A stretch of DNA of 64,000 bases from Raillietiella orientalis (Eukaryota): assembly GCA_036172245.1 (NCBI GenBank), contig JAYWIR010000068.1, positions 1-64,000 of the forward strand, in the 5' to 3' direction. Positions within the stretch are counted from its first letter, which is position 1; the number at the start of each line of letters is the position of its first letter. Made by a program: the position numbers and the translations under genes. The notes below the pieces were generated by a model. It saw only the letters and a list, made by a program, of their open reading frames with translations. It was not told the origin of the DNA and made no database searches. This document shows positions 3,401-52,667 of this stretch, one piece after another.

Positions 3401-3416
3401 GCGTACCGGGTTTCAA
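411..3416 (+). mobile_element. L1/Tx1-like family A, 3' half (RT, C-terminal zinc domain, 3' UTR), disrupted
   Basis: NWRPITIVN, VDLHKAFD, GIRQGDSLSP, YADD and CVRCGE..HLL motifs spread over several frames; pyrimidine-rich UTR; AATAAA-hairpin end at 3388-3416. Confidence 0.93.
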
Positions 3417-3940
3417 GAAAGACTCTGAAGACGACGCCTCTCAGGAATTTGCGAAGGTGTTCGTTCGCACCTGAGAGTCGCGTCTAGTCCTTCGGGAGAC
3501 GCCACACCCTGGGTTTCAGGCTCATCGGTTAGGAGGCGGAGATTGAAATCTATCGCTATCAGTTGAGCCTTTTGCACGTTCGTGTTTGCCAGCCAGTCGC
3601 TATTCAGGGATTTCAGCAACCTTTTACGGTCGGAATAAGCTCTTTTGCCGCTGGGGGCGTACACATTCGTGACGATCAGATCGATCGAGTCGGACCAGCT
3701 TTGAGTCAGCTGACTGACTCGAGCGTCGTCATCGAAGCGCACGCCCTTCATGGCAGCGTTGATGGCTGGCTTCACGAAGAACGCGACCAAGCAGGTGTGC
3801 GGAGGCCGCGTTGCCAGTACAGCCGACCTCCCGCGATCGTCTCGATCTCCTAGGCATCTGCCGCGGTGATCACGTAGATCTTCTGCAGCAGGGCCAGGTC
3901 GAGCTCACGCAGAGTGTCGGCCGTATCTCGCCTGTTACCC
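3417..3940 (-). mobile_element. Family B endonuclease fragment with an internal deletion
   Basis: VAFFVKPAI and TNVYAPSG motifs; similar to 28200-28945. Confidence 0.85.
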
Positions 3941-3944
3941 TATT

Positions 3945-6773
3945 GTTCGGACGTGAATTCTTGCGCTCCGTCTTTGGTGTTTTTTGCGGCTGTTCCTTTT
4001 GGGTGTGCTTATGTTTTTCATTTAAAAATGAAGCCAGTGCTTGCATATATGGAGGTGGGGAAACCTCCCTGCGTCGCAGGGCCTTCTTCGGGAGGAGTGG
4101 AAGCCTCCACCGATCGTCCCTCGCCTCCAGCGAGAAGTTTTGCCGCCGTTGCTAAGGCAGTGGCGGCCCACAAAGCCCCACCTGACGAGGTAGAGCTGCG
4201 GCGTACGCCGCTAGCGGCTACAATCCCCCTCTGGCCTACAAGGTCAGTGCCGCGTACCAGGATGGGACGGGCGACCAGCTCTGGAACGAGCTCTAACGCG
4301 TAGGGTTCCGAGAGGACGATCTCCTGGCACTTATGCTAGTAAGCGCGGCTGGCCATTGGAAGGTGCACTGCAAGGATGCAGCCCTGGTAAAGCGCCTGCT
4401 GCGAACGCCCCTGAAAATCAGGGGTAAGGAGGTAGTCCCAGGGGTAAGTAGTATCGGCCCTGGACCAATCGTTCGTGGTCCAGCTCTCGGGCATTCGGAA
4501 CGCGACATCATTGTTGCACTCTAGGCGTTCGCCACAGAGCACGCGATGTGGAGGCGCGCGAATTTGATCGACAAAGTCGCGCGCCTCTCTTGCGGACTCG
4601 CAACGGCGCGCGTCACCATGGACGACCGGAGGCTCATGCCTTCCCAGATCCTCCTCGGTGACGTCGTCGTCTACCTCCGGTTTGCCGGGCAAAACCCTGC
4701 TTGCGGCAACTGCGGGAAGGAAGGCCACCGTCCGCGGAAGTGCCCGACATGCAGTTGCCGATACTGTAAGCTGCTCGGCCACTCAATTAACGATTGCGCC
4801 GAGCTATTACGTAGAAGGAGGGCGAGAAACCTCACCGCAACATCGCCTTCCGCGCCGACTCCATCCGCACCGTCGTCAGGGAAGAAATCCGGAGCGAACG
4901 GGGATTCGCAGCGGAAAAGTAAAAAGTCCGCTTGCGCGGGCGATTCTCGGAGCAATGCTCTCCAAAACCCCGCGCAGAAGGACAAGAAGCTTCTCCAAGC
5001 TGCTTCAGTAAAGCCCCGTGCGATCCAGCTCGCCGAAAACATCGGGCAGGCTGCGAAACCTCCGCTTCAGTCCGCTCTCGCTTTGGAGCGAAATAGCGGT
5101 GGCACGCCCGATAGGTCCAACGGAGAATCGAAAAAGGGTTCGCGCGCCCCTTTGCTCACGACAGGCAAGCCGGCCACGGCGAGACGAACGCCAGCAAAGA
5201 CTGAAAAGCCTCGCGCGACCACCGAGAATACCGCCACTCTGCCCGCACCTTCCGGTAAGGAGGTGCAAAAGGCAGACGCAGCGAAGGAGACACTGGCCTC
5301 CATCGCCGTATCCGAGGCCTTGGAAAGGATGCAAGGGACCCTGGAAGCCCTCGCGCTCAACCGAGGAAAACCGGAAGGCGGCGAGGATGGCTGGATTTTT
5401 GTTAAGGGAAGAAAGAAGAAGCGAAAACCGCGCGATCCTTTCCACTTCCCGATTAAAAAGGTAGGAGGGGTGAAGAGGCAGCCACGCGAGCCAAGGAAGG
5501 CGCAAGAAAAAGCCTGTGCTGCCGCAGCGCGCGCCGTCGTAAACACCAGCGGCGAGAGGGGAGCTACCGAAGCCGTGACCCCGGAAGGGGGATCGGGGAC
5601 GAAGGCACCCTCTAAGAGTGCTGGACCAGCTCCGGGATGCCAGCAAAATCAGAGGCAGAAAAAACGCTTGCCGCGCGCGCGCAATTCGGACTCCGAGGTG
5701 GAGTTCGAGGGCAGCGCTAAGGCGCGCCAAGCTTCGGTCAAGCCCAGGGCTGCGCGCAAGCCAAAACTTGCCAGGCAAGTGACTGCTGCCGGGAACGGTT
5801 CCCAATGCTCCTCGGAGCCCCAGGCAATGGATCTCGACTCCACCGAGCCAGCCGCGAGCGGCGCGGCGGGGACAGGAAGCGCTTGCGCTACCTCATCCGT
5901 TGTGCTTCCTGCTGCTGCCTCGCCGGACGGAACGAGGAACGCACCTCCATGTCCGCAGCAGCAATTCGTGGTCTCGCTTCTTCCCGTCGTGTCCGAGTGG
6001 CCTGTTGGAACGTCAACGTGCTGCAGGACAACGAGAAGAGGGGATTGGTTGCCAACGTCATTGCGCGACTTCGATCTGGCCCTGCTGCAGGAGATTCAAG
6101 CACTCTCCGAGCAGCAAGCGGCCGATCTGCAAGTTCGCGCAGGCGGGACGCTCCTTCAAAGGTCAGGCTCCCAGAATACCTGCGGAGTCGCATTCCTTGT
6201 CCGGGGCAGGGTGCCCGGAGCGATGCGGAGCGTTTGTTTCGACGAGGTAGGTCGTGTCGGCCAACTTGTTCTCAAGTGGTCCGAATCGATCAACCTTGTT
6301 GTCACGAACGTGTACGCGCCGAGCGGCTCCGCGCGTCACACAGATTAACTGAAGTTTTTCGAGAGACTGAACGACCGCTGGCTCAGCAACTCCGGCCCCG
6401 ACGTGGCTTACCTCGAAGCCGGAGACTTCAACGTCCACGCGCTATCAGAGGAGTCTTACCGTCGCCGGGAGAAACGGCTGGTGAACGAGGTGTGCGCGTC
6501 CGTGCACGCCTCGAAATTGCTGGCCGACGATCCCGAGATGCGCGCTTTGCCGGACCATATGTTCCTCGACGATCACGTGCATTGTCGGGTGGGTCGAATA
6601 GGTCCCGTGCCGTCCGAGCCTTCCGACTACTACAGGCTGGAGTTCTAGCTACTCCCGCCTGGAAAGGGTCCTCCGACGCACGTCTGGAGGTTGCCGGCCG
6701 ACTGGTTGTGAAATCCGGTGGCTGCAAAGCACCTCCGCCAGCATCTCCTGACCTTGGCCGTTCGAGAGCTCGT
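3945..6773 (+). mobile_element. Family C 5' half: 5' UTR, ORF1 and APE endonuclease, disrupted
   Basis: CGGACGTG at 3948; CGNCGKEGHRPRKC and CRYCKLLGHSINDC knuckles; ACWNVN, LLQEI, NVYAPS, AGDFN. Confidence 0.9.
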
Positions 6774-8886
6774 TTTTCACCCGGTTGCGCCGTAGCGTTT
6801 ATTCTTTAAAATAAAACCAACGTAGATGGCTGACCAGTGCTCTGGTCACGCACTGCTATACAAAATTAAGCCTGCCGGGTCATAAATTCATATTCCACAC
6901 GGTCCACCACGACAGCAGAGGGGCCAAGGACAAAACGAAAAATAAAACAAAAAAAAAAAATTTTTAATCAAGATCTGGGGGGAACGAGAAGGGATCACAG
7001 TCTTCTGTGGGACCGTTACATCGTTTGCAGGATGCCGGCAAGCTGTCTTTGGATGTTTGAATCCAGATGGGTCCATCCTGTCGCCGTCCGCATAAATTCG
7101 GCTGCGCACTGTACGGCACCCTTATCGCGAGGTCCTCCCGTTGCTTTGCTCCATGCAGCTACGATCCCCTGAAAGCAGCACAGAGCTGCTAACGCGGTCG
7201 AGGGCCGAAGGGCGTCGCAAACGAAGAGGGATCTAATTGCGTCTCTGGGGTTGCCACAGGGGTTACCGATTTCCGCGGCAAAACGGTTCCAAAGGGGCCG
7301 AAGAGCCACACAATCCAAAAGGAGGTCAGTGAGGGACTCCCGTTCTCCACACCTCGCACAATTAGGGCTCACCGCTGCCCAGGTCCAATGGTGTCGGCGG
7401 GCGTTGCAGGGGAGTCCCCAATGCAGCAACAATAGCGTTGACTCCTGCCATTTTGAGGAGAGGATGGAGGTGTTCATCAGCACCGGAAGACACTTTAATT
7501 GTTCTTGCAGAACATTAAGCAGCTCGCCCTAGCGCAAAAGTCTAATAAGGGTGGTAGTCCGGGGCGAGGTATCGCAGAGAATTCCCGTTTTCCATTCCCC
7601 GATCTTTTTCTCCGTACCGGAGATTTTGATGTAAACATCCCATTTCGCAGCAGTGTTGCTGTTTAAATGTTCCGCGAGCGGAAACAGCATTGCAGCGAGG
7701 GGAGTTTTTCTTGCCCACGCTCGTTTTTGGGGGTTCTCCAGGACCTCCTGGAGAGTCAGGCGGTCATTACGAGCGAAGAACTGTCTCTGCCTTTCTTGGG
7801 TGCGTTGCTGGTTGCTCCTCGCCCACGTCTGAACCGTTTCCTGCAGCCATGCAGGTTCGTTAACGGGGCGACAGCAGAGCAATCCTGCGTTCTTTCTCAT
7901 CAGGTCAGCCACTCTCCGTAGCTTCAACCCGCAGTGACCGACTTGGCGGCGCCGACTGAGCGCAAGGAAGGATGACAGTCCCACCTTGCCTGTAGCCTGC
8001 TCGACGAGGAGACGTGCTGGCTCGCACCAGCTGCTATTCGAATATTTTGCCACTAGGGCGTGTAATTGAAACTGGAGCTGGAGCTCCAGCAGCTCTAGAG
8101 TCAGGAGACCGAGACCGCCGTCCCGACGCGGAGCGCTCAAGTCCTCAGGCCGGACTCGGGCCCTCCCATTACCCCACAGGGCAATCTTTAGGAGGTCCTT
8201 CGTCTGCTTTTTAGTCTCTGTGGTGTGGGGACAATTAAATAGCAGGGAACGGAGGAGGGGCGCCGCAAATGCGTTCCACACCGCGGCCCGTTCCTGCAGG
8301 AAAAACCTGCGGCCTTGGAACGGGCCGATCGCCGTCTCTACCATTTCAAGGCAGCTGGACCACGCATCCGAAGGGAGATAATCACCCATCTGTACACCGA
8401 GGTACTTGAAGTACCGTACCGTGGGGATCCCCAAACGGACCCAGTCCGGCTGCCCTACCCACGCCGCACAGATTGGCATGACGCACGACTTCGCCCTGTT
8501 CACCTCAAGCCCGGTTCCCCGACTTAGCAGGTCGAAGAACTCCTCGACCGTCGATTCCGGGGTGGACATAGGGAGCAGCAGCGGTAGGTCGTCCGCATAT
8601 GCTGACACCGCGGGCGCACCGGGATAGTCGCGCGGCAGGTGCGCTACAGTTTCCCTGGACGCTCTCATTACCAACTCGAAGTAGGTACTGAAGAGCAAGG
8701 GACTCAGGCTGTCTCCCTGACGTATTCCGCTTTGCACCGGTACGCCGTGCACGGTGTGTCCACTGAAAAAGATCTGGATGAGCGCGTCGCGCCAGCAGGA
8801 TCGCAGGTAGGTCAGCAAAGAGACCGGGAAGCCCAAGCGTTCCAGGAGCTCCAGGAGGAGCCTCTGCTCGACACAGTCGAATGCTT
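6774..8886 (-). mobile_element. Family D 3' half (RT from KAFD onward, zinc domain, 3' UTR)
   Basis: ORF 7529-8836 has GIRQGDSLSP, YADD, FKYLG; ORF 7016-7483 has CARCGE; terminal hairpin ~6774-6803. Confidence 0.92.
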
Positions 8887-9230
8887 ATCCGTGAACTCGT
8901 GGACTGGGACGATCTGAAAAGATCGGTCCGCGAGTTCTGCTGCCAGTTCTTTTTGCACCTGCTTCCCCACGGCTTCGGGAGGGGTGTCGCGAACAGCAGA
9001 TCCTTTCTGCAGGCGCGTGCCTTCTCCCGATGCCCGGACGTCCGGCGTCTGGCGGAGTACAAGGCCAGAGCCGAGCGCCAGGTTTGGCAGTCTGGAGCGG
9101 CTTGTCTGCTCGATGATGCTAGCCAGGAATGCTCGGATGCAGCCGACGTGCGACGCGTAGTTGAGCGCTAGTACTTGCCCATACAGTAAGATCAGTTCAG
9201 AAAGATCACCGGCACGCCGGTTGCCTTCCA
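8887..9230 (+). mobile_element. Family C-like ORF2 fragment resuming after the D insertion
   Basis: IRELVDWDDLKRSVREFC continues the reading broken at 6773. Confidence 0.85.
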
Positions 9231-12200
9231 AAAGAAAGGAACGGAGGAAGAGGGATACAAAATAAACAAAACATAAGAGAACAAACAGAAAAAACTGTGG
9301 AGGGTGGGGTCAGGGATCTTTGGTAGTAAACGTTCCTAATCTTTCTAGAAGCGCTGTTTGACAATGGTGACTTCCCTGGAGACTTTTCTGGGCAGATGAA
9401 GCCACCTGACAGCTGCTTTCATGAGGTTCGCAGCGATTCTGGCGGCGTCCGTTCGCTGCGAGCTTCTTTCTAGTTTACGGCGGGCGATCACGATGGCGGG
9501 GATGCAAGAGATTGTTACGATAACAGCGCCTTTATCCAGACCGTCCTTGCTGAAGAAGCGTCGAAGCAGGTCTGTGGCAGTGTCCTGAGGACGACGAAGT
9601 GCCGAAGGAAGTCTCCGCCATAACTCCCGCAAGTCACTACACTCAAGGAGCAGGTGCGTAAACGATTCTATCGCCCCGCACCTGAGGCAGTTCGGGGAGA
9701 CGACTCCCCCTGTAACCAAGTTTCTGCGCTTATTGCACTGGAATCCCCAGTGCAGAAAAAGAAAAACATCCTGTTTCCATCGAAGCGGGAACACGGATCT
9801 GTCCACACACAAGGAAGGTACCACGAGATCTTCGGGGAGTAATCCAAGAACCTCACTCCAACGCAGAAGTCCCTTTGCCAGGTAACGAGGAGTGGCAGCG
9901 TCTACCAACACGCTCGTTCTGCAGCCGCTCAGCAGTCTTCTCACTCCTGCAATGCTGCAGAAGAGCTCCCACCTTGCCGGTTGGCTACTGTCGTTGTTTG
10001 CCCTGAGAGCAGACAGCGCTGCGGCGATGGGTGAAACGACTATCCGGGAACAAAGCGACCAGTCCTGTAGGATCACTCCTAGCGGTTTGCGTAAGAGGCC
10101 CTCTAAGGGTTGCAGTTGCTCTGGGCGCACATCCAACGTGGACGTCCAGTGCTCCAGAGCTACCTGCTGCCAAGCATTCCAATTCGAGGGGCGGCAGGAA
10201 ATCCAGGAATGGGCTAACAGCAACGAGGACAAATGCCTCAGTGGGTAGCCAAATCCAGTTCTCCGGCGAAGGTTGGGCGGCAGCAACGAAAGCAATCCTG
10301 CACTGCCGACACATCGCTGGAGAATATGACGAGCCGGAGCACACCAGTGACTAGACTACAATTTCCCACATAGGGATAGAAGCCGGAACTGCACTTGCAG
10401 TCCAATCTTCTGGATGCTCAGGATGCCCAGATCTGCGTCCTGGCATGGCGCCACCAAATCTTTAAGGCGAACCCTGGATCGCGCAGCGCCCCACAAGACC
10501 TTACGTAGGAGACGCTGCGCCCGGAGTTTAACCACATACGAAGGCGGAAAAATAAAAAATAAAAAGCGGAGGAGGGGGGCAAGGAAAGTGTTCCATATGC
10601 ACGCCCTTTCCGGCAAGACGAACTTGCCTTCCAGGAAATTACCTAGAGCCATCTCTGCCTTTTGAAGACGGGCCGACCACGATTCAGACGAGCAGAAGTC
10701 GGCCAACGGTACGCCAAGGTACTTGAAGTACCTCACCGTGGGGATCCCCAGGCGGATCCAGTCGGCCTGTCCCTCCCACGACGCACCCACTGGCATGACG
10801 GAGCACTTCGCCCTGCTAACGCTCATGCCCGCTCCACGACGGATCAGCTCGAAGAAGTCTTGGACCGAGTCCGGCCGAGTAGACATGGGCAACAGAAGCA
10901 AAAGGTCGTCGGCGTATGCTCTCGCGGACGGAGTGCACGGAGAGGCGCTGGGCAGGACGGCCAGCGTCAGCCTCTACCCTTTTAGCACCAACTCAAAGTA
11001 GATGCTGAATAGCAACGGGCTTAAGCTGTCGCCCTGTCTGATGCCTCTGCGCACGGCCACTTCGCACACGCGGGAGCCACTGAAATAGAAGTTGATAATC
11101 GCGTGGCGCCAGCAGATGCGCAAGTACAGGAGAAGATGATTCGGAAGCCCAAGACGCTCCAGGAGCTCCAAGAGGAATTCCTGGTTTACGCAGTGGAATG
11201 CTTTCTGCAAATCTACTGCTACTGCCAAGGCTCTGGCCATTCTCCCGTCCGTCCGCACTGGCGCACGCAGTCGGCAGAAGGTCTTGCCGCTGTTCGGCTA
11301 TCTGCCGCAACGCGCTCTTGAAGCTGCCACCAGGTGCGCGCGAAAAGAAGGTTCGCATCCATGGATCTACCCGGTACAGCGTAAGACTGCTCCGGGCTTA
11401 CTGCGGACTCCGCGACTTTCCCTAAACGCGTGACCCACAGCTTCGAAAACAACTTGACGTCCGTATTCACTGATGTGATCGGACGCCAGTTGTTGAGTTG
11501 GCGCAGATCCCCTCCTTTCGGAAGGAGACGCACCCTTGCTGAGCGGAAGGAAGAAGGGACATCGCCCGTCACCCTCATCAGCGTCGAGATTCTAAGAACC
11601 AGAGGGGCGAGTTCCGCCGCGAAGCTCTGATAGAACTCCGCGGGCAGTCCGTCCTCACCTGGCGTCTCTTGTCTCTTGAGTCCTGCGATGGCGGAAGAAA
11701 CTTCCTCCAACGTGAAGGGCTCGTCGGGACGATCGCGTTCCTCCTCGCCGATGCCATGTGCAGCCCGCGGCAAAAGTAGTTCGGAGATGACTCTTTCCGT
11801 CGGGGAATTAGCGTAGAGCAAGGAGAAGTGACGCTTTAGTGCTCGCCGCACTTCGGCAGGAGCCGTAAATTACCGGCCTTGGTCGTCGAGCAGAATAGCC
11901 GCTCCAGACTGCCAGACCTGCCGCTCGGCCCTCGCCTTGTACTCTGCGAATTGCCGGACTTCCGCACGTCTCGAGAAGGTGCGCGCCTGCAGAAATGCTC
12001 TGCTATTCGCCACGCCTTCCCCGAAGCCGCGTGGTAGCAGGTGCAGGGGGAACCGGTCGCAAACCTCGCGAACCGATCTTTTGAGGTGGTCCCAGTCTAA
12101 GTGATCCGCAATGGCAAAGCCGCGAAGGAACTGGTGAAGATGCTTCGCCGCTTCCGGGTGACAGCCAATCCGCCGGCATCCTCCAAACATTGTTTGGAGG

Positions 12201-13596
12201 TACCTTGCCCAGCAGGAGTAGCTCGAACTCCAGCCTATCATGGTCCGATAACGTGCACGGCACCCTGCCTCTCCTTCCCAATCGCGAGAGTAGGTGTTCA
12301 TCGAGGTAGAGGTGATCCACGCACCTTTCCAGTCCAGGCTCGCCGGCTTTCAAGTTACGCGCGTGCACCGACGCGCATGCCTCTTCTTCCCGCGACCGTT
12401 CCGCCAGGGACCGCGTCTCGTTGGAAAGCAGGTGGACGTTGAAGTCCCCTGCGACGAGATGCGCCACTCTGGCTCCGGAGTTTCTGAGCCATTAGCTCTC
12501 CAGCACGTCGAAGAACTCGATTCTTTCGACACGCCGATCAAACCTGCTCGGCGCTTAGACGAACGTTACGACGAGGTCGATTGAATCTGACCACTTCAGT
12601 ACAAGTTGGCCCATTCGCCCTTCCTGGTCGAATCGAACGCTACGCACCGCTCCCGCCATCCTACTATTAACGAGAAACCCGACTCCGCACGATTGTGCAG
12701 AACCTTCTCTCCAGTACAGGGTGCCACCCGCGCGCTGTTCGGTTTCCGCAACCTCCGCATCGGAGATGTCATGCATCTCCTGAAGGATCGCCAAATCGAA
12801 ATGTCGCAGGGTGTCTGACACGTCGCGGCTCTTTCCGTCCTTGCACAGCCCATTGACGTTTCAACAGGCTACGCTGAATCGACGAAAAGATGCGACTACC
12901 TGCATTAAGGCTGGGAAGGTGAGCACAAATTTCTCGCCTTGTCTGGCGAGTGGTCACGAGACAGAGCGTTTGATCTCGGAGACTGGACATCTCCATTCAA
13001 AGCCGCACTGCTTGTTGCCGGTAGCTCATAGGTGAGGTCCTTTTCCTCCTCTTTGCTCCCCAGCAACAGTTCCTCCTCGGCAACTACGCGCTTGCGGGTC
13101 TTCGGGAGGCGATTGCGCGGTTTCGGGCGGTTGTCGCGCTGTGTGTTCTTTCTTTCGGACTCTGGATCAGAATCCGACAGTCGAGGGCTTGCCAGGCGCT
13201 GCTGCTGTTTCCCGGAATTACGGAAATCGTTCGCTGCCTGTTTTTTAGCGCTTTCTGCAACTGCGGCTGGGACTTTCGTCCTTTTAGCCGCAGCAGCAGC
13301 TTCCCGCTCCAGCCGCGAGAGGACGATTGCGCAGGAGGAAAGAATCGCAATCTTTTTCTGGGAAGGTTTCGCGGGTTTCTTTCGCCCACTCACCTTCACA
13401 CAGAGCTGCGAAGACCTTGATGGTTTCTTTCTAATGATCTTTCTCGCCTGCATCCAGCCGTCTTCCTCCGCGTCGCAGTTATCTTTACCATCCTGAGATG
13501 GCGCTGCTCCCACCGATGTAAGAGGCGTTGCTTTGGCTGCCTCTTCGAAATCTGCCTCAACGCAGGCGTAAGCAACTCCTCTAGCGATCGCGAGAG
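9231..13596 (-). mobile_element. Family E: end of ORF1 and a complete but disrupted ORF2; 3' terminus lost
   Basis: AGDFN, SDH, NWRPIT, GIRQGDSLSP, FKYLG and CLRCGAIESFTHLLLEC across ORFs 9345-12821. Confidence 0.9.
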
Positions 13597-17065: not shown

Positions 17066-17069
17066 GACC

Positions 17070-25503: not shown

Positions 25504-25709
25504 TCCCTCCCCAACCCTCCCAAATCTTTTTGTTTTTATGTTTTATTTTTCTTTTTGTTTTTTCCCCCACCCCCTTCTGCTGCCGAGGAGAGTCGCGCCG
25601 GTCTGCGTACCGGCGACCCGCCAGGTCCAGTTGAGTTGGGCGTAGTGAGGCCTCCTACCACGAACCAAAGAGAATTTTAAATAAACGCACCGGCGTGACC
25701 GGGTGGCAA

Positions 25710-26294
25710 CTATCAACTTGGCGTCCGCATTCACTATTGTGATGGGACGCCAGTTGTTCATGCTCCTTAGGTATCCTCCCTTCGGGAGGAGCAGCACCTT
25801 TGCTGAACGGAACGAGGTGGGAACGTCACCTGTCTCGCGAATCAGCAAGGTGAGTTGCTGTACCAGGGGGGTAAGCTCAGCCGCGAAATTTTGGTAAAAC
25901 TCCGCGGTCAGGCCGTCCTCCCCTGGAGCCTTCCGCCTCTTGAGCTTTCCGATGCACGAGAGGATCTCGTCCATCGTGAAAGGCTCGTCGAGGCTTCTTT
26001 TCTCCTCCTCCCCTATCGCCGGAGCACCTTCCGGAAGCAGAAGTCGTGAGACGTCTCGCTCCGGAGGCGCCCTGGCGTACAGGGAGGAGTAAAATTTCTT
26101 CACAATGCCGCGGTTCTGAGCAGGAGCCGAGTGCTCCCGGCCCTGGTCGTCCAGCAAGCTAGCCGACCCGGATTGCCAGGCTTGCCTCTCGGCTCCCGCT
26201 CGATACTTTGCTAACCTGCGCATGTCGGAGGTTCTCGCGTAACGTCGGGCCTGAAGATAGCACCTTTCGTTACGCGGCCCCTCCCCGAATCCCA
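25710..26294 (-). mobile_element. Family A ORF2 fragment (linker to start of RT)
   Basis: GFGEGPRNER...KAPGEDGL...NWRPITIVNADAKLI. Confidence 0.9.
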
Positions 26295-26394
26295 ATCCTC
26301 GAGAGCGGACGTGTTTTTCCGGCGCTCCGCGAACGAGCAGCGGAAAGCGGTTTTTTTTGGTTCAGTGTGTGCTTTTTCACATCGTTGGTGTCCG

Positions 26395-28281
26395 ATGGCA
26401 TCGCTGCCAGAGGACACAACGATGAAGGTAGGCGTGAGGGAGGCTAGCCCCCCCCCTCGACCTACAGAATCAGGGGCATCCGCCCCGGAATCGCCCTCGT
26501 CGCCCAAGACGAGGAACTGGAGCGCCATGGTCGCCGCGCCGAGCGCGGAAACCTTGGCTGAGCAAGCGGCCTACAGGGCCTCCGGATATAAACTATCCCT
26601 GGTTTATAAGGTAGGAAACCTGTTCGACGGTCGCACCGCGCGTGCCTTTAGCAAGGCACTACAGGAATTCCCCGTGCGTGAGGAGGATCTTGACGGCCTC
26701 GCCGTACTCAGCGGGGGGCAACGCGTAGAGGTCGTCTGCAAAGACGTAGCCCTAGCGCAGCGCCTCATCAACACCCCGCTGAATGTGGCTGGACGAAAGA
26801 TCCTACCCGTTAGCATGGACCGCTCCGTAGTGGTCTATCTAACGGGGATCACGAACCGCATGACGCGCTCTGCGGTGAACGCGGAATTGAAGAAATACGG
26901 AGATGTGCACGCGCTGTGGCCAAAGCCAACCATTTTTGACGGCTATAACAGCCTCTTTGGTGGCCAGGCAGCAGCGCGTTTCACTGTGAACGAGGGTGCT
27001 GGGTTACCCCACAAACTGGAGGTCGCGAAGGAGCCCGTCGACCTCTGGTACGTGGGGAAACCCCGCCATTGTGGCTACTGCGATGCAGTAGGGCATGTGC
27101 GCAGGCGGTGCCCGAATATCGAGTGCCACTTGTGCGGGGAAAAGGGACACGTCCGTCGTGTGTGCCCTAAACGCCCCACCCCGGTGCCACCTGCTGCCAA
27201 AAAGGCACAGGCGAAAAAAATGAATAAGGTCGAAAGACCTCATCGCGAGAATGGCCGGCCTCAGCAGCCTTCTCCTCCTCCTCCAACCCAGGCGGCGGCG
27301 GAAAAAACCGCGAAAGACGCAGGCGAGGAAGAAGGATGGACGCTGGTAAAGGCCAGAAAAGAACCCAAAAAGGGTTCACACGAGAAGGCGGAGAAAACGC
27401 CGGTCGCGAAGGCGAAAAAACCTGGTCCGCGATCTAAAACTCTCCGCGAGTGCTCGGTAGCACTGGAGCGCATCAGCGTTCCCGAGGCTGCCACCCGGGG
27501 CGACGAGCCTCCCCTCGCCGTTTCCGCCGCGCCCGAGGTTCGCGACGGCGAACCCTCTGTTTGCACAGAGGATGAGACGCGCGACGCGCGCGACGCCGGC
27601 GAGGACGCCGCCTTCGCGAAAGCGGCGGAGCTCGCGGCCACGCTGGCTGAGCGTGAGAACCCCTCACGCAAGGCCGTGCGAAGGCCGGCTCCGCCGAAGA
27701 AGGCCCCCGCAGGTGAGTGCGACCTGAGGGCCGGAAGTGCATCCTCCTACTCGGAGGCACCCCCCCAGAAGACGGGACGCAAGTCCCAAAAGCCGAGGAA
27801 GCGCCTCCCCTCCACGAGCGAGGAGGAGAAGCAGGAAGTCGCCGACAGCGTGGGAATCCCGGAGGGGGAGCTCCCACGCGCGGAAGCCGTCGAGCAGGAC
27901 ACCCCCATGGAGGAGGGTGAGCAGGGGGGCGAAATCCCCCCTGCCGTCGCGGACCCTGAGGAGCCCACCCCTATGGAGGAGGGCCACCAGGTTGGCGCAA
28001 CCCCACCTGAGGGTGAACCGCCCGACGCGCCGTCACCGATGAAAGAGGGTGGCCAGGTGCTAGAGGCACCTGTCCCTCCTCCTCCACCTAGCGTCCCGCC
28101 CCAACAGGTGGCGGACGCCGCACAGCCGATTTCCCAGGAACAACACCTGGGCTCGCCTGTCGCCGTCGAATCCGCGTGGCCAGTTGGAACGTCAACGGGC
28201 TGCGCGACGACGGCAACAGACGAGATACGGCCGACACCGTGCGTGACTTCGACCTCGCCCTGCTGCAGGAGATCCACGTGA
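26395..28281 (+). CDS. ORF1 gag-like protein (reads past the usual stop position at ~28141)
   Basis: CGYCDAVGHVRRRC and CHLCGEKGHVRRVC knuckles; similar to ORF 20019-21920. Confidence 0.85.
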   Translation: MASLPEDTTMKVGVREASPPPRPTESGASAPESPSSPKTRNWSAMVAAPSAETLAEQAAYRASGYKLSLVYKVGNLFDGRTARAFSKALQEFPVREEDLDGLAVLSGGQRVEVVCKDVALAQRLINTPLNVAGRKILPVSMDRSVVVYLTGITNRMTRSAVNAELKKYGDVHALWPKPTIFDGYNSLFGGQAAARFTVNEGAGLPHKLEVAKEPVDLWYVGKPRHCGYCDAVGHVRRRCPNIECHLCGEKGHVRRVCPKRPTPVPPAAKKAQAKKMNKVERPHRENGRPQQPSPPPPTQAAAEKTAKDAGEEEGWTLVKARKEPKKGSHEKAEKTPVAKAKKPGPRSKTLRECSVALERISVPEAATRGDEPPLAVSAAPEVRDGEPSVCTEDETRDARDAGEDAAFAKAAELAATLAERENPSRKAVRRPAPPKKAPAGECDLRAGSASSYSEAPPQKTGRKSQKPRKRLPSTSEEEKQEVADSVGIPEGELPRAEAVEQDTPMEEGEQGGEIPPAVADPEEPTPMEEGHQVGATPPEGEPPDAPSPMKEGGQVLEAPVPPPPPSVPPQQVADAAQPISQEQHLGSPVAVESAWPVGTSTGCATTATDEIRPTPCVTSTSPCCRRST

Positions 28282-29159
28282 TCACCTCGGCAGACGTCCA
28301 GGAGATCGAGGCGCTCGCGGGGGGTCGACTGTATTGGCGATGCGGCGCCAGCAACACCTGCGAGGTCGCGTTCTTCGTCAAGCCGGCCATCGACGCTGCC
28401 GTGAAGGGCATACGCTTTGATGACGACGGTCGGGTCGGTCAGCTGATTCTCAGCTGGTCCGACTCGATCGAATTGATCGTCACGAACGTGTACGCCCCGA
28501 GCGGAAAAGGGGGATACAGCGACCGTACCAGGCTGCTGGAAACCCTGAAGCGCGATTGGCTGGCCGACACGAATGTGCGGAAGGCACACCTGAAAGCTGG
28601 AGACTTCAATCTCCGTCTGCTGTCAGGTGAGCCCGAAGCACAAGAACGCACGGCCAACGAGTTCTTCGCTGCCATGCGCACGCGCAACTTGTTGGCAGAC
28701 GCGGAGGGAATGGACCGCAGCATCGACCACTTCTTCCTGGACGTCGACCTGTGCTCGCGGGTCGGCAAACGGGGAAAAGTTGCGTCGACGCTGTCGGACC
28801 TTTCCAGGATCATCGCCGAGGTTTGCCCGCGCGACAAAGGACCCCCGTCCAGGGCGTGGCGGCTGCCTGGGGACTGGACGCGGCTCTCAGGTGCGAAGGA
28901 ACACCTTCGCGAATTCCTGAGAGGCGTCACCCTCCGCAGTCTCCATTGAAACCCGGGTGCGCCGGGACGTTTATTCTAACGAATAAACTTATACAATCTG
29001 TGACTGGACCAGTAGTCCAGCCACGCCCCAGAAAATTTCAGCCTGCCGGGCTGCCGGTGCGCAGACCGGCGCGGTCCACCTCGGCAGCAGAGAGGAGGGG
29101 AATGAAACAAAAGAAAACAAAAAAATAAAAAAAAAAACGGTGATGGAGCGGGGAGGGAT

Positions 29160-32100
29160 GACTGTCTGCTGGGAGGGTCCGTCCTTCTCTGGAGGATTTC
29201 GGCAAGCTGTTGCTGGATGGTGGATGTCAGATGGGGCCATCGCTTCGCCATCCTCAAAAAGCGGGCGGCGTACACGGTAGCATCCCTGTCGCTGGTTCCT
29301 CCCGTCGCTTTGCTAAATGTCACTACGATCCCGCGTAGGCAGCACAGGGCTGCAAGCGAAGCCGCTGGAGGCAGGGCGTCACGGACGAAGAGTGGGCGCA
29401 AAGCGTCTCTGCGGTTGCCTACGGGGATACCCAGGGCCGCGGCAAAGCGTTCCCACAAGGGACGGAGAGCAACACAATCCACTAACAGGTGAATGAGGTA
29501 TTCCCTCTCCCCGCACCTGACACAATTGAGATTGACACCCTCCCGCGTCCAGTGGTGTCGGCGGGCATTGCAAGGAAGGCCCCAATGCAACACCAGGAGT
29601 GTTGACTGTTGCCAATTCATGGAAAGGGTGCGCGAGTCCATGAGCACCGGGGGCCACTCGAGATGTTCCTACGGAACAACCAGTAGCTCGCCCCAGCGCA
29701 AGAGTCCGTGTGGGGAGGTCCTCGGGGACGCAGCGTTGGTCAGCTGGCCCGTTCTCCAATCCCCGATCTTCTTTTCCCTGTTGGCGAAGTTGAAGGTAAC
29801 CTCCCATTGTGTCACGAGGTCACTGCCCAGATGTTCCCATAGGGTAGGCAGTACCCCAGCAAGGGAGGTTCCTTCTGCCCACGCTCTCCTTCAAGGATCC
29901 TCGACGATTTCACGGAGAGTACAGTGGGCGTGCGGCCCGAACAGAGCTATTCGATCGTGTTGCGGGCTCTGCTCCTGCGTCATCGCCCACGTGCGAACGG
30001 TTTCCTGCAGCCAGGCAGGACCGTTCGCGGGGCGTACGAGGATCCGCGCCGAGTTGTTCTTCACGAGCTTGGCCGCCCTCCCAAGTTGAAGTCCGCAGTG
30101 GCAGATGGGGCTTCGGAGTGCAAAGGAGGACGAGAGTCCCGCATTGCCGGTGGCCCGCTCGACGAGGAGACGTGCAGGGAGGCACCAAGGGGTGCACCAA
30201 TTTCCTGCCATAAAGGCAACAACTCGGAACTGGAGCTGTAGCTCCAGCCGCTCCAACGTCAGGAAGCCCAGACCACCATCCCGACGAGGAGCGCACAAGT
30301 CCGAAAGACGGACTCGGGGCCTCCCTCTGCCCCAAAGGGCGATCCTCAGGAGGTCCTTCGTCCTCTTCTTTGACTACGCTGAGGGGGGGCAAACAAAAAG
30401 CAAGGGGCGAAGGAGGGGGGCCGCAAACGCGTTCCACGCCGCGGCCCGTTCCTGCAGGTAGAACCTGCCGTCCTGGAACGGGCCGATCGCCGCCTGAGCC
30501 TGCTGAAGGCAGCCGGACCACGCTTCCGCAGGGGAGTACTCCCCCAACGGCACACCAAGGTACTTGAAGTACCTCACCGTGGGGATCCCCAAACAGACCC
30601 AGTCCTGCTGCCCTGCCCACGCCGCTCAAACTGGCATTACAAACGACTTCGCCCTGTTCACCGTCAGTCCTGTTCAACGACTCAGCAGCTCGAAGAAGTC
30701 TTCGACCGCCGAGGCCAGGGTGGACATAGGCAGCAGCAGCAGAAGATCGTCCGCGCACGCCGAAACCGCAGGCGTACCGGGGCAATCGCACGGAAGGTGC
30801 GCAAGAGTCTCCCTGTACGCTCTCAGCACCAATTCGAAAAAGGAGCTAAAGAGCAGGGGGCTCAGGCTGTCTCCCTGCCGTATGCCGCGTCGCACCGGTA
30901 CTCCGTGCACGGTTTGCCCGCTGAAAAGAACATTAATGAGCGCGTCGCGCCAGCTGGAGCGCAGGTAGGCCAACAAAGAGGCCGGGAAGCCCAAGCGTTC
31001 CAGAAGCTCCAGCAGGAGATTCTGGTCGACGCTGTCGAATGCTTTACGCAAGTCGACAGCGACCGCAAGGGCTCCCTTCCCCACCCTACCGTTCCATCTC
31101 TCGCCAACGGACGCACCGGAATTCCGGCTGCTCAATAAGCCCCTTCCTTTTGGAGCTCTAACCATGTGGAAGCGTGGAACAGGTTCGCCTCCATGCTCCG
31201 CCCGGGAACAGCATAAGTCAGTTCCGGGCTCATGAAGATGTTGGCGACCCGTCCCAGGCGCTCTGCCCACATCTTGGCTATCAACTTAGCGTCCGCATTC
31301 ACTATTGTGATGGGATGCCAGTTGTTCATGCTCCTTAGGTCTCCTCCCTTCGGGAGGAGCCGCACCTTTGCTGAACGAAACGAGGTGGGAACGTCACCTG
31401 TTTCACGGATCAGCAAGGTGAGCTGATGTACCAGGGGAGTAAGCTCAGCCGCGAAAGTTTGGTAAAACTCCGCGGGCAGGCCGTCCTCCCCTGGAGCCTT
31501 CCGCCTCTTGAGCTTTCCGATGGCCGAGAGGATCTCGTCCATCGTGAAAGGCTCGTCGAGGCTTCTTTTCTCCTCCTCCCCGATCGCTGGAGCACCTTCC
31601 GGAAGCAGAAGTCGTGAGACGTCTCGCTCCGGAGGCGCCCTGGCGTACAGGGAGGAGTAAAATTTTCTTACTATCCCGCGTTTCTGAGCGGGAACCGAGT
31701 GCTCCCGGCCCTGGTCGTCCAGCAAGCTGGCTGATCCGGATTGCCAGGCTTGCCTCTCGGCTCCCGCTCGGTACTCTGCTAACCTGCGCATGTCGGGGGT
31801 TGTCGCGTAACGTCGGGCCTGAAGATAGCACCTTTCGTTACGCGGGCCCTCCCCAAAACCCGCAGGTAAACGATGCAGGGGAAACTGATCGCAGAACTCC
31901 TGGACCGACCGCTTGAAGCGGTCCCAGTCCTGAAGTGTCTGCATCCTGAAGCTCCGAATAAACGCGCGGAGGTGCTCCGCCGCGTCGGGAAACTTCAGCC
32001 AGTCCCCTGGCAGACGCCACGCTGACGAGGGGGGGCCCTTGTCGCGCGGACGCACTTCGAACATGATCCGACCATGGTCCAACAGCTCGGATGGTACCTT

Positions 32101-32739
32101 GCCACGCCTGCCCAACCGAGAGCATAGCTGCTGATCAAGGTACACGTGATCGATGCTGCTTTCCATGGCTGTGTCCCCGGCCAACAAGTTGCGCGTGTTC
32201 ATTTCTGCGCACAACTCGTTGACGCGGTCGTTCAGTGTATCCGGCGCACCTGAAAGCAGGCGCAGGTTGAAATCACCTGCGATCAGGTGCGCTTTGCGAA
32301 CTCCTGCATCGGTCACCCAATCGCGTCTCAGGGCAAGGTAGAATTCCCTTCTTGCCTTCGCCTTCAACGCGTTATTTCCGCTAGGAGCGTATAGGTTGTT
32401 GACGACCAGGTCGATAGAGTCGGACCAGCTGAGAGTCAGCTGACCGACGCGACCTGCGTCATCGAACCGAACGTCCTTTATTGCGGTGTCGATGGCTGGC
32501 CGAAGCAGGAAGGCGACACCGCTTGATTTCGCGGGGCCGCAACGCCACAACAGCCGCCCACACGAGATCTGTTCGATCTCCCGGGCTTGATCTGCGGAGA
32601 TCACATGGATCTCCTGCAGCAGCACCAGGTCGGAGGATGCCAGGGTGGCGGCCACGTCACGCCTCTTGCCGTCGTCGCTTAGCCCGTTCACGTTCCAACA
32701 GGCGATCAGAAGACGACGGCGAGAGGCGATTCCCGGCAT
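29160..32739 (-). pseudogene. Family A ORF2 (APE-RT-zinc), frameshifted near 31140 and 30360
   Basis: ORFs 31132-32739, 30674-31270, 29891-30298 and 28976-29647 carry consecutive ORF2 motifs. Confidence 0.9.
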
Positions 32740-34397
32740 TATGGCTGGGAAAGTGGCGTCGCGGCACCTGCCGCGGGGCAGGTGTACGAAAGGTCCATGG
32801 GTACGAGGACCATCGGAACGAGGACGGAGGCCTCTTCAGGCGCCTGGTGTACCTGTTCGGCCTCCATCCTCACCATCCCCTCCGTGTCCGAGCGTGGAAT
32901 TCTCTCGGGCGACGGGTCCCGGGAGTTTCCCACGCTCATGGCACCCTCGCTACCACAAGCCATCTCTTCCCCTTCGTCGGGGGAGACGATCTTCCGGGGC
33001 ATTGTGGACTTTCGTCCTGCCTTTTTGCGGGGTGCCGCGGAGATGGATGCTGTGTTTCCGGCCTTCACCTCGGGGTCGGAAGTGGCCGACTCCTGAGGGG
33101 AAGCCGGACGTCTGACGGCCTTCTTGCCAGCCTTGGGGGCAACCGGCTGCAACGAGGCAGCCAGCTCCTCCGCGGCGCGCTCCAAGGCGACGTCATCGAG
33201 CGTGGGCTCGATGACGCACGCCACCGCCTCGCTCCACTCCTTGTTGACTTTGTCAACGGAGGGTTGAGCAGGGGCAGCAGGGAGTTCTTTAGCGCCGCAT
33301 TCGTCGATGGCGGGAATCCGCTCTACAACGACGCAGCAGCTTTTAATTTTATCGCGGCGCAGAGCGGTTTCGCTCCGTTTCGCCACGTTCTTTCCCTTCT
33401 TATGGGAGGTTTTCTTGGGGTCGACCTTCTGCCACCCTGGCTCTTGACCCTCGCCCTCGACCTTTTCGGCGTCTTTCGCCGAAGTCTCCGGGCTGGCCTT
33501 CGCCTTGGTGGCGGAGGTGACCTCCTTAGCAGCAGCACGAGCTGCCAGCTTCTTTCTCTTTTTTGCCGCGCGCTTTCTCGCGTTTTTCGCGCACACGACG
33601 CGGACTGTGTTTTGGGGGCACACCAGACGAGTGTGCCCCGCTTGTTTGCATTGCTGGCACTGCACGCTCGGACACCTCATTTTAAGGTGACCAAAGCTGC
33701 TGCAGCAGCCGCAAAACTTGGGTTTCCCCACGTACCACACGTCAACGGATTCACCGTTGACGGTGAGTTTGTGGGGAATCTCAGATCCCTCGCGAACCGT
33801 CACTCGCGCTGCACCCAGGCCGCCAAGCAACCCGTCGTGATCGACAAAAGGAGTAGGCTTGCCCCACAGCGCGTGGAGAGTTGCGAATTTTTCCAATTTG
33901 TTCCGGACGGCCTCCTTCGTCATCCGGAACGTGATACCGGTCAGGTGAATGATCACCGACCGGTCTTCTGTTATTGGGAGAAGCCTCCGGCTGCCCATAC
34001 TTACGGAGGTTCGCAGAAGTCTCTGCGCAAGAGTTGCCTCCTTGCAGATAACTTCCACAAATTGACCCCCGCTTCTGACGGACATAGCCAGAAGCTCCTC
34101 TTTCTGTACGCCGAGAACGCGCATCGCCTGTGAGAAGGCGCGCGCGTTCTCGGGAGAATATAGACCGCCTACCTTATATAGAAGGGGTGGGTCATACCCC
34201 TCCTCCAGGTAAGCGCGCATTTCCGCCATAGCCGCTGGCGTAGGTGCCGCAGCCATGGCGTTCCAAGCCCTGGGTAGGGCCGGGGGCGCATCCATGCTGG
34301 CGGAAGCCTCCATTGATGCGGGAGCCCCCACCTCCATCTCCTCCGGGGGCAATGAGGTCATCGCCCTCGCATCCTCACCGGTGGTGGTATCAGGCAT
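32739..34397 (-). CDS. Family A ORF1, open, 552 aa
   Basis: ATG-to-stop ORF with CGCCSSFGHLKMRC and CQQCKQAGHTRLVC knuckles. Confidence 0.9.
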   Translation of the reverse strand: MPDTTTGEDARAMTSLPPEEMEVGAPASMEASASMDAPPALPRAWNAMAAAPTPAAMAEMRAYLEEGYDPPLLYKVGGLYSPENARAFSQAMRVLGVQKEELLAMSVRSGGQFVEVICKEATLAQRLLRTSVSMGSRRLLPITEDRSVIIHLTGITFRMTKEAVRNKLEKFATLHALWGKPTPFVDHDGLLGGLGAARVTVREGSEIPHKLTVNGESVDVWYVGKPKFCGCCSSFGHLKMRCPSVQCQQCKQAGHTRLVCPQNTVRVVCAKNARKRAAKKRKKLAARAAAKEVTSATKAKASPETSAKDAEKVEGEGQEPGWQKVDPKKTSHKKGKNVAKRSETALRRDKIKSCCVVVERIPAIDECGAKELPAAPAQPSVDKVNKEWSEAVACVIEPTLDDVALERAAEELAASLQPVAPKAGKKAVRRPASPQESATSDPEVKAGNTASISAAPRKKAGRKSTMPRKIVSPDEGEEMACGSEGAMSVGNSRDPSPERIPRSDTEGMVRMEAEQVHQAPEEASVLVPMVLVPMDLSYTCPAAGAATPLSQP

Positions 34398-37300
34398 TTC
34401 TGCCTAATCCTCCACCCACACCACGCACAAGCACCCACGGAAATGGAACTCAGGAGCAACGAAAAGACACGTCCGCTCGACGCTCCGCAGTCTCCAAGAC
34501 TGGGACCTCTTCAAGGCCTCGGTCCGCGAGTTCTGCGAGGAGTTTCCCCTTCACCGCCTGCCCCCCGGATTCGGGGAGGGGGCTCGGAACCATCAAGCTT
34601 ATCCACAGGCCCGCCGGTACGAGAGGACCCCGAATGTCCGTCGCCTCGCGGAATATCGAGCCGGGGCCGAACGCCAAGACTGGCAATTCGGGTCGGCCAG
34701 CTTGCTGGACGACCAGGGCCGGGAGCGATTCGCCCCACCCGCGATCAGGCACCTCGTGCGACGTTACTACTCCTCCCTCTACGCTAGGGCACCCCCAGAG
34801 CGGAACGCCTCGCGGCTCCTGCTCCCGGATGGAGCACCGGCAATAGGGGAGGAGGAGATCAGCCTCGACGAGCCTTTTTCTACCGGTGAAATTCTCGCCG
34901 GTATTAAAAGGCTCAAAAGGCGTAAGGCGCCAGGGGAGGACGGCCTGCCTGCGGAATTCTTTCAATGTTTCGCGGCAGAGCTGGCACCCCTGGTACTTCA
35001 GTTCACCGGGCTGATCCGTGACGAAGGCGACATTCCCGCCTCGTTTCGGTCAGCCCGTGGGAGGCTCCTCCCGAAGGGAGGAGACCTGAGATCCTTGGGC
35101 AATTGGCGTCCGATCACAATCGTGAATACGGACGCCAAGCTGATCGCTGGACTGTGGGCTTAGCGTCTAGGACAGGTGGCAGACTCCATAATTAGCCCGG
35201 AGCAGACGTACGCTGTTCCCGGGCGAAGTATGGATGCCAACCTGTTCTTCGCGAGCACATGGTTCCATATGCAGCGCTGCCTGAACGACACAGGGGGAAA
35301 GATTGGCAACCCCACTTTGGGACCGCCAGCTGGGCTGGGAATGGATACCCGGGCTGGGAAGGGAGCCCTAGCGATCGCGGTCGATCTCCACAAGGCGTTC
35401 GACTGCGTAGACCAGGAGCTACTGTTGGAGCTCCTGGGTCGAATGGGCTTCCCACCCTCCCTTCTCTCCTACCTGCGCTCATGCTAACGCAATGCCATTG
35501 TCAACACCGTCTTTTCCAGCCAACAGGTGTACGGCGTGCCGGTGCGGCGGGGCATACGGCAGGGCGATAGCCTCAGTCCCCTGCTCTTCAGCACCTACTT
35601 TGAGTTGGTGCTGAGAGCGTACAGGGTGACTTTGGCTGCCCTGCCCAGCTCGTGCCCCGGCACGCCCGCCGTAGCAGCATACGGCGACGATCTTCTGCTC
35701 ATGTTGCCCATGTCCGCCCCGGCAGCCGCAGTCGAGGATTTCTTCGACCTGCTAAGTCGTGGGACTGGACTACGGGTAAACAAGGCGAAGTCGTCGGTCG
35801 TACCGGTGGGTGCGACGTGGGTCGGACGGCCTGACTGGATCCGCTTGGGGATCCCCACGGCCAGGTACCTGAAGTACCTGGGTGTCCCGTTGGGGGACTT
35901 CTGCCTCGCAGAAGCATGGTCAGGTCGTCTATAGAAGGTAGAGTTGGCAATCGGCCCGTTCCTGGAAGGCAAGTTCCTTCTGCCGGAACGGGCCGCGGTG
36001 TGGAACGCCTTCGCGGCTCCCATCCTCCGCCCCCTGCTTTTCGTGTGCCCCGTCCCCCGTGAGATTAAAAAGAGGACAAAAGACCTACTCCGCATCGCCC
36101 TCTGGGGCAGCGGGAGGCCACGTTTGCCTCTGGATAATTTATGCGCTCCTCGTCGGGACGGCGGTCTCGGCCTCCTGACGCTGGAGCGCCTCGAAATACA
36201 GCTGCGATGGCGTACCCTCGCCATCGCAGCGAAGACTTGGAGCATTCCTTGGTGCGTTCCGGCTCGCCTCCTCGCCAGACTTGTGTCCTGGTGTGAAGGA
36301 TTCGCGTCTTTCCTTCTGTGCCGTGGCCAGAAGATTCGAAGGTACGGCCTACTGCTCGGGTGCATGGCAACCCTGGCGAAGGAGAACCGCTCGATGGTTT
36401 GTGGCCCCGCCAACTCCTCCGCTTGGCTGGAGGAGCCTGCTGGCACCTGGGCCAAACAAAACTCGAGGAGTCAAGATCCGATTAACTGACTGCGCATCGG
36501 CCTGTACGCCCGCCGCACCCTGCGGGAAATACTAGAATTTCCGCGTGTCGCGCGTGCGCGCAGAGGACCACCCGTGATAGGGCGATGCCCTACCTCTGGA
36601 GGGCGCTTCACGGCCGCCAGAAGAGGAGGTGGCAAGTCTCTTGTTGAATTGCAGGCAGAAAAAAGATGTTAAGCGGCTGGATCACAGGAGAACTGGCGGA
36701 CGCCAAGACCCCGAGCGTCCAGCCGCGAGGATTGATGAGATGGGGCGAGCTGTACGCCATCCCTACGTATGTGCTGAAGTGGCCCCCGGTACTCTAGGAA
36801 TCCAGGATCTCTTTCCTTAAGTGGCAAGAGTCGGCGTTGCTACTGCTGGACTGCGGTTTACCCAGCAACGCGCGCCGCTTCCACTGGACGAGGGGAGCTG
36901 TGGGTCCTGAGTGTGCCAGGTGCGGGGAGCGTGACTCGCTCCCCCACCTTATTGTGGACTGTGCTCCCCTGCGTCCCCTTTGGGAACGGTTCGGGACGAC
37001 CCTCGGGCTCTCTACGGACAGCACCCCCAGAGACGTTCTCCGGCCCCTCTTCTTGAAGAACAACCTGCATCCAGCCGCAGCCTTCCCAGCCCTGTGCTGC
37101 GTCCGAAGCATTGTGGCGGCCTGAATTCACACTAACAACTAAGGAGTGTATCCAAACGCGAGGGAAGTCGTCCCATACGTCCAACGCTTCATGCGAAGAG
37201 CTGCAGGATGGCCCCAACTGGGGAATATACGGATGGACCTCGAGGGCTTCCTTCTCACAGCGAGCAGTTATCCCTTGCCTGCCCTCCAACTTCTTTTTGT

Positions 37301-52640: not shown

Positions 52641-52659
52641 CTTCTACGCAGTTACCAAC

Positions 52660-52667
52660 TATAAATA
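52660..52667 (+). promoter_or_regulatory. TATA box upstream of the viral rep
   Basis: TATAAATA between the origin and the rep ATG (52725). Confidence 0.6.

Follow-up and report, generated by a model that had tools for sequence, protein, structure and literature searches.

Site-specific long interspersed nuclear elements (LINEs) are known for ribosomal DNA (rDNA), small RNA genes, microsatellites, telomeres, DNA transposons and long terminal repeat (LTR) elements. Here, we describe a LINE nest in Raillietiella orientalis (assembly GCA_036172245.1, contig JAYWIR010000068.1, positions 1 to 64,000 of the forward strand; this whole stretch of 64,000 nucleotides (nt) is called the window), in which three LINE 3' ends adjoin the same codon position of the second open reading frame (ORF2) of other LINEs. 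This position, S, lies between the apurinic/apyrimidinic (APE) endonuclease and the reverse transcriptase encoded by ORF2, and the insert is antisense to its host in all three cases, the fixed orientation that characterizes target-specific LINEs. Such same-codon antisense landings suggest a retrotransposon homing on its own relatives. We lean towards a hotspot used by two related lineages, A and D, that would be directed by the preference of a family-specific endonuclease, with integration by ordinary target-primed reverse transcription (TPRT).

Among the closest described systems, LINEs of the Tx1 clade target mobile elements. The portion of PMC4494074 drawn on here lists Tx1L in the piggyBac-type Tx1D, Tx1-Mar in Mariner-N4_AMi, Tx1-9_AMi in Harbinger, and Tx1-8_Crp and Tx1-4_AMi in LTR retrotransposons; it ascribes target choice to the endonuclease, and counts a LINE as target-specific when more than 20% of the flanks of a family are the same sequence. 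As far as that portion describes them, these elements resemble ours in being APE-endonuclease LINEs whose copies always occupy one place, in one orientation, within a different mobile element that is itself multicopy. They differ in that our target is the coding sequence of LINEs of the same broad group, at a conserved protein motif, and in that our evidence is three of four ends in one window, not a family-wide statistic. In the sections cited of PMC1919474 and PMC5035012, R1 and R2 are site-specific LINEs of 28S rDNA; as here, they are nicked into a conserved multicopy target at a single position and in a fixed orientation. Their targets, however, are host genes hit with near-absolute specificity, whereas here the target is the gene of a rival transposon and three of eight S sites carry a LINE end.

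Two other systems accumulate by self-nesting. In green algae, Zepp and Zepp-like elements of the L1 type nest in LINE copies, in tandem and mostly as 3' ends, according to the excerpts used of PMC8226300 and PMC3446292. The accumulation by insertion into LINE copies and the GC-rich nests are shared with our locus. Cnl1 of Cryptococcus, in the corresponding excerpt of PMC9942834, inserts preferentially in its own copies and forms tandem nested arrays near telomere repeats; common to both cases is a non-LTR element nesting in pre-existing copies. Within the scope of those excerpts, the tandem pattern of Zepp and Cnl1 differs from ours: eight of nine junctions in the window are antisense, and six elements are full-length with a complete 5' terminus. 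Our elements further differ from Zepp in ending with a hairpin and short tail and in reusing one codon, and from Cnl1 in entering other families at a defined ORF2 position, S in the A copies themselves being empty in two of two (with A' broken by other DNA). Within the literature collection searched, no paper describes antisense insertion of LINEs at one set point in the ORF2 of other LINEs.

L1-like LINEs form a nest in the window, and their copies, on both strands, fill the GC-rich part from 1 to ~55,000 almost entirely (about 57-63% GC up to 40 kb). Each element is laid out as ORF1, with weak matches to CCHC knuckles, an APE endonuclease (PF03372) and a reverse transcriptase (PF00078). Pfam finds PF03372 in the copies A2, B2, A' and H, and PF00078 in P0001, the intact reference ORF of copy B3. 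An ORF2 with an N-terminal APE endonuclease followed by a reverse transcriptase places these LINEs in the L1-like APE-type class, and the nearest solved structure is human L1 ORF2p (E = 4e-42). The marks of TPRT are present as well, with target site duplications (TSDs) matching at 14/14, 10/14, 13/16 and 16/16 positions, 5' truncation of D1, A1 and AD, and a defined 3' terminus. In eight aligned ends, this terminus is common to the families: AATAAAC is followed by two variable bases, then by a CCCGG-loop-CCGGG hairpin and finally by a short family tail, which is TTTCAA in A, TGAAAA in D and TG(G/A/T)(C/T)AAC in B.

S is defined as the point 14 codons plus 2 nt past the His of the HLR motif, one base before GACTGGGAC, which encodes DWD. 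It lies 66 residues past the endonuclease match in the B2 ORF (match at 30-219 of 285) and 193 residues before the start of RVT_1 (residue 174 versus 367 of P0001), so that endonuclease-reverse transcriptase linker is a fair name for the region. The first of the three junctions is 28945/28946. Here, host B2 on the plus strand reads HLREFLRGVTLRSL followed by 'ca', and then passes into the 3' end of A2, which is of A type (AATAAAC-GT-CCCGG-CGCAC-CCGGG-TTTCAA) and stands here as its reverse complement. The TSD is perfect (14/14), and B2 resumes after A2 as A-GACTGGGAC at 34498-34506. The parts are the following.

26299-28945, plus strand: host B2, 5' part, with 5' terminus, ORF1, endonuclease and linker to S
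28932-28945, plus strand: left TSD copy of A2, CTCCGCAGTCTCCA; its last base is S in host B2
28946-34482, minus strand: A2, full-length A-family LINE (ORF1, APE endonuclease, reverse transcriptase), antisense at S of B2; 5' terminus GGACGTGT
34483-34496, plus strand: right TSD copy of A2, followed by A-GACTGGGAC
34483-37480, plus strand: host B2, 3' part, with linker from S, reverse transcriptase and 3' end, tail TGACAAC

At the second junction, 6773/6774, host C on the plus strand reads HLRQHLLTLAVREL followed by 'gt' and then the reverse complement of a D-type 3' end (TGAAAA). The two TSD copies match at 10 of 14 positions, after which the host resumes as G-GACTGGGAC.

3949-6773, plus strand: host C, 5' part, with 5' terminus GGACGTGA, ORF1, endonuclease and linker to S
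6760-6773, plus strand: left TSD copy of D1, GTTCGAGAGCTCGT; it ends at S of host C
6774-8886, minus strand: D1, D-type LINE, 5'-truncated at the KAFD motif, tail TGAAAA; antisense at S of C
8887-8900, plus strand: right TSD copy of D1, followed by G-GACTGGGAC (8902-8910)
8887 to about 9190, plus strand: host C after D1, continuation of C

At the third junction, 3416/3417, the 3' end of the plus-strand element A1 adjoins host B1 on the minus strand, which reads HLRKFLRGVVFRVF followed by 'c' or 'ct' (a 1-nt ambiguity). The cut point in B1 is thus 14 codons plus 1 or 2 nt past the His of HLR. Even when up to three mismatches are allowed, the 14-mer does not recur at a plausible place in the window.

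410-3416, plus strand: A1, A-family LINE, beginning in the His codon of HLR; its tail TTTCAA adjoins S of B1
3417-3940, minus strand: host B1, with endonuclease and linker to S; 212-nt internal deletion relative to B2

The TSDs of A2 (14/14) and D1 (10/14) argue that these are staggered-cut integrations into intact host DNA. In both cases with preserved downstream host (A2/B2 and D1/C), the nick lies exactly one base before GACTGGGAC. This is the only conserved stretch beside the nick, and all five exact copies of it in the 64 kb are at S; the host bases upstream of the nick differ among the cases and have little in common beyond a Leu codon. An initial annotation of the window had already placed three junctions at one ORF2 position, with a perfect 14-bp TSD at 28945 and differing host bases to the left of the break; each of these observations was reproduced, with a 1-nt ambiguity at the A1 junction.

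S is spanned by eight copies in the window. It adjoins a LINE 3' end in three (B1, B2 and C), is empty in four (A1, A2, E and B3), and is broken in the remaining one, A'.

453-461, plus strand: empty S in A1, exact GACTGGGAC
12089-12097, minus strand: empty S in E, exact GACTGGGAC
22723-22731, plus strand: empty S in B3, variant GATTGGGAC
31921-31929, minus strand: empty S in A2, exact GACTGGGAC
51224-54981, plus strand: A', A-like LINE (ORF1, endonuclease, linker); other sequence interrupts it at 52357-53929, and it ends at S to S+3

The use of S depends on the family of the insert: three of four A/D-type 3' ends lie there, compared with none of the eight others (Fisher P = 0.018). This is a preference and not an absolute rule. 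The A/D share of 3/4 comes from n = 4 in one window, whereas the 20% by which target-specific LINEs are recognised refers to the flanks of a whole family.

An alternative that we consider unlikely, though it survives better than the other rivals, takes S to be fragile or exposed in the target itself, as a matter of DNA structure, chromatin or a repair hotspot, with end-joining or TPRT landing there whatever the endonuclease. It would accommodate the use of S by two lineages with different tails (A, TTTCAA; D, TGAAAA). B-family hosts also have a short inverted repeat around the nick (AGTCT-CCA-AGACT in B2), but this repeat is absent in C, A and E. It would also accommodate A' (82% identical to A2), which breaks at S to S+3 (54982) and is joined there to AT-rich non-LINE DNA. 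The joined DNA is a 5'-shortened second copy of the sequence that interrupts A', which resembles the Rep gene of circular Rep-encoding single-stranded (CRESS) DNA viruses. The chance of an unrelated breakpoint falling at S in A' is ~0.005-0.015; for the endonuclease-directed hotspot the break likewise counts in favour, as it fits repeated cleavage at S. Against the fragile-point reading, the eight non-A/D ends, which inserted in the same nest, are all elsewhere, and a precise 14-bp staggered TSD is what element-encoded cleavage is expected to leave.

The orientation of the inserts bears on a second rival. Twelve LINE 3' ends were recognised in the window, nine by pattern and three (D1, C/Y and E) by reading; the pattern scan gave six further matches, none of them an element end. 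A recognisable LINE flank is found at nine of the twelve, which shows insertion into existing LINE copies, and eight of these nine are antisense (A1, D1, E, H, AD, B3, A2 and C/Y). The single sense case is B2, which entered a B-like 3' untranslated region (UTR). When the 5' junction of B1b is included, the count becomes 9/10 (one-sided P = 0.011). No nick motif shared by all 12 3' junctions could be read.

Such a bias would follow if the RNA of an incoming LINE paired with the antisense strand of a resident LINE and the displaced sense strand were nicked, S being the most accessible point. Insert and host are 57-77% identical. We know of no precedent for homology-guided choice of an insertion site, and we hold this explanation to be improbable. 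H, too, is antisense in its host E (perfect 16-bp TSD), although its endonuclease shows just 27% protein identity. In addition, local alignment of the last 300 nt of the insert with an 80-nt target reached P <= 0.05 in none of the four TSD-proven insertions. A stretch of the A 3' UTR, 29002-29010, resembles the motif minus one G and had been considered as a pairing partner; given the result of the alignment test (0/4), this candidate was dropped.

A third rival, which we rate as very unlikely, holds that a single ancestral composite with an insert at S spread by being copied, whether through segmental duplication, gene conversion or its own retrotransposition, which would make the three junctions a single event. 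This scenario, which the initial annotation had itself named as the one that would overturn its idea, draws on the heavily rearranged state of the nest, with TSD-less joins (E and B2) and mosaics such as AD. It can also point to the 80 host bases beside the A1 junction, which are 87.5% like B2 and so approach the identity of the inserts, 90.2% over 3032 nt between A1 and A2. Overall, however, hosts B1 and B2 are only 81.4% identical (387 nt), that is 81% against 90% for the inserts, and about equal distances separate B1, B2 and B3, the last of which has no insert. The 231 differences between A1 and A2 in the ORF2 frame fall on codon positions as 61/50/120 (P = 4.4e-9), in proportions matching those between B2 and B3 (175/130/328), and the ratio of nonsynonymous to synonymous substitution (dN/dS) is 0.2 over the first 278 codons. 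Because neither the third-position excess nor this ratio is expected of a dead passenger, A1 and A2 diverged as active elements and not as copies of a dead composite, and the codon-position test rejects the scenario for the A pair. D1 is only 73% like A2, and its host C is 57% like B3; D1/C shares neither insert nor host family with the A cases and is, by these identities, an unrelated insert/host pair. Judged on sequence divergence, S has been hit by at least two independent retrotransposition events and most likely by three.

Finally, coincidence or assembly artefact, for which one could argue that positions 1-38 kb are almost all LINE, such that any new insertion must strike a LINE, and that repeat nests are difficult to assemble, has very little probability left, since mis-joins would create neither TSDs nor a complete 3' terminus at the joint and since Monte Carlo simulation gives P = 2.5e-6 for three of 10 junctions falling within 1 nt on the same strand (5.5-kb element, both strands), P = 6e-5 when the target is a 3.6-kb ORF2 on one strand, and P = 0.01-0.03 for two coincident junctions among nine, the A cases being counted as one event.

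We therefore return to a hotspot of the A/D lineages, probably directed by their endonuclease. The A/D endonuclease would have a strong preferred nick in the ORF2 of related LINEs, on the sense strand of the host and one base 5' of GACTGGGAC, a sequence conserved because it encodes DWD in the linker. The 3'-OH at this nick would serve as primer for copying the incoming RNA into cDNA, starting at its 3' tail, so that the insert would come to lie antisense to its host. A second nick on the other strand, 14 nt upstream, would then yield the 14-bp TSD. Junction position, strand, TSDs, independent origin and family dependence are shown by the sequence; we infer that the site is read by the endonuclease rather than by another part of the particle, and that GACTGGGAC would be the sequence read.

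A number of observations weigh against this mechanism. Of the eight S sites, four are empty, and three of these carry exact GACTGGGAC. AD, whose 5' part is 94% A-like and which is 66-88% A-like further on, has its 3' end at KAFD of a C-like host instead of at S. Antisense orientation is general in the nest, including at junctions other than S, and is therefore not explained by S alone. A' is joined to non-LINE DNA at its break, which shows that S can also be the end point of something besides an A/D insertion. D1 and AD lack their own endonuclease region, so that the D-type endonuclease may or may not resemble the A-type one. The A1 case is the least clean of the three, because its 5' side is not that of a simple insertion: it has no TSD, and the adjoining B fragment is 96.6% like B2, compared with 81% for the host piece. 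The adjoining fragment probably stems from a later B insertion, antisense at the HLR of A1, whose 3' end lies outside the window. The TSD of D1 matches at only 10/14, and because three of the four mismatches are at third codon positions, and thus mostly of synonymous type, the two halves of C could be different copies. The sample, moreover, is three events in a single 64-kb window. The initial annotation had proposed that these families may use the ORF2 of another LINE as target, which might give a safe harbour and disable a competitor, while listing ends at HLRAF, GFGEG, DAKL and KAFD that do not fit; all of the latter are present. What holds of that proposal is a recurrent, strand-specific insertion point between the APE endonuclease and the reverse transcriptase. 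Strict target specificity is not established, given AD at KAFD and the four empty S sites.

Relatives were also sought outside the window. In metagenome contigs, the shared 3'-end signature turned up at 110 loci, none of which (0/110) is similar to the LINEs of the window. Protein searches gave one close relative among 14 matches, P0002 (68% identity over the reverse transcriptase part only, S not being covered), and a 151-residue query spanning S gave none. Atlas clusters for P0002 are generic reverse transcriptases; one, named 'Transposon TX1' (rank 22, score 0.88), is the single hint that these LINEs might belong to the Tx1 clade. In the public run X1 (Logan contigs, share 0.12), positions 17601-37600 retrieved 570 short contigs of related LINEs, none at S among the matches listed, a result that carries no weight either way.

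A more far-reaching version of the endonuclease-directed hotspot is possible, although we regard it as doubtful. It describes a hyperparasitic LINE lineage, whose A/D endonuclease would have evolved to recognise GACTGGGAC (DWD) as a sequence that is hard for rivals to change, providing a harmless landing place and at the same time cutting the endonuclease of the competitor off its reverse transcriptase. Rival LINEs could not easily alter GACTGGGAC, because their own ORF2 needs DWD. Within this version, the unoccupied B3 variant GATTGGGAC could be an escape allele.

The remaining architecture of the nest involves several further elements.

about 9190-17059, minus strand: E, one full-length element, split by H
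13597-15568: H, antisense inside E, with a perfect 16-bp TSD
17464-19816, minus strand: AD, 3' part, A/D mosaic with tail TGAAAA; 3' end at KAFD of host X/C
19815-25710, plus strand: B3, full-length B LINE, antisense in AD at DAKL; TSD 13/16 with an 11-bp perfect core; intact reference ORF P0001
25711-26293: AD, 5' part, the remainder of AD beyond B3

Host C appears to be the backbone from 3949 to 37707, with D1, E and AD in antisense and B2 in sense. Two further pieces, 17060-17463 and 37491-37707, probably belong to it, as CL, CR and X show similar distances from both E and B3. Neither E nor B2 has a TSD at its 5' join, and in each case the two flanks are parts of the presumed host C that do not adjoin one another, with ~70 codons missing at E and ~2 kb at B2, which suggests insertion-associated target deletions or later rearrangement. 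Up to A2 position 3203, AD matches A1/A2 at 94% identity; the value is then 83-88% for ~700 nt and 60-70% near the 3' end, where AD has a D-type tail. Such a pattern suggests that LINE families recombined or that template switching took place between them. The 5' truncation of D1 (8880-8886) is at the K codon of KAFD and the 3' end of AD (17450-17463) lies within the KAFD of its host, ~9 nt off in ORF2, a closeness that may be coincidence. Two other candidates were rejected: a recurrent second site at the endonuclease break of G/G', where the breaks differ in position by 27 nt, and head-to-head 5'-5' joins as products of double priming, since the predicted TSD is absent around the AD/B2 pair. 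Most such joins consist of the 5' end of an insert beside host sequence.

In six elements of different families (C, E, B3, B2, A2 and G) the 5' terminus is complete and reads GGACGT(G/T) and then a run of T; these termini are at 3949, 17059 (minus strand), 19817, 26307, 34474 (minus strand) and 45992. In three of the six, TCGAG stands a few bases upstream. The common terminus suggests a 5'-end or promoter requirement across LINE families. The full-length 5' end of G follows the 3' end of F head-to-tail at a distance of 13-14 nt (45975-45992), the only tandem arrangement in the window. H is 1.97 kb long and has an ORF for an APE endonuclease with no reverse transcriptase match; its 3' end, AATAAACTTAC-CCCAC-CCCTT-GTGGG-ACTTGGGGAAACC, is unlike that of the other families. 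It is probably non-autonomous, and it was recently active, because a second copy at 63674-64000 is 98.5% identical over 328 nt.

The CRESS-DNA-virus-like Rep sequence is present in two copies, at 52357-53929 inside A' and from 54982 to about 55960 beside it. Pfam recognises Viral_Rep (E = 1.8e-15) in the ORF at 52665-53123, and a Walker-A helicase-like ORF follows at 53257-53799, with its counterpart at 55341-55850. The second copy is without approximately the first 530 nt of the first; the two are 67.6% identical at the nucleotide level (53300-53755 versus 55346-55809), and their best translated segment is 64% identical over 115 residues. The LINE nest stops exactly at the broken S site of A' (54982). 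From there to 64000, GC falls from about 60% to 38-50%, and among the ORFs scanned in these last 9 kb none is Pfam-recognisable, save the Rep-like copy and the terminal H copy.

A LINE that chooses a conserved codon in the ORF2 of other families, in fixed antisense orientation, would be a distinct form of transposon-on-transposon parasitism. If the endonuclease-directed hotspot is real, it would supply a natural APE endonuclease with a target of roughly 10 bp for studies of specificity, as well as a mechanism for the growth of GC-rich LINE nests, possibly centromere-like or heterochromatic blocks. It would also be a concrete example of competition between retrotransposon families and, should the hyperparasitic version be true, of an arms race between retrotransposons.

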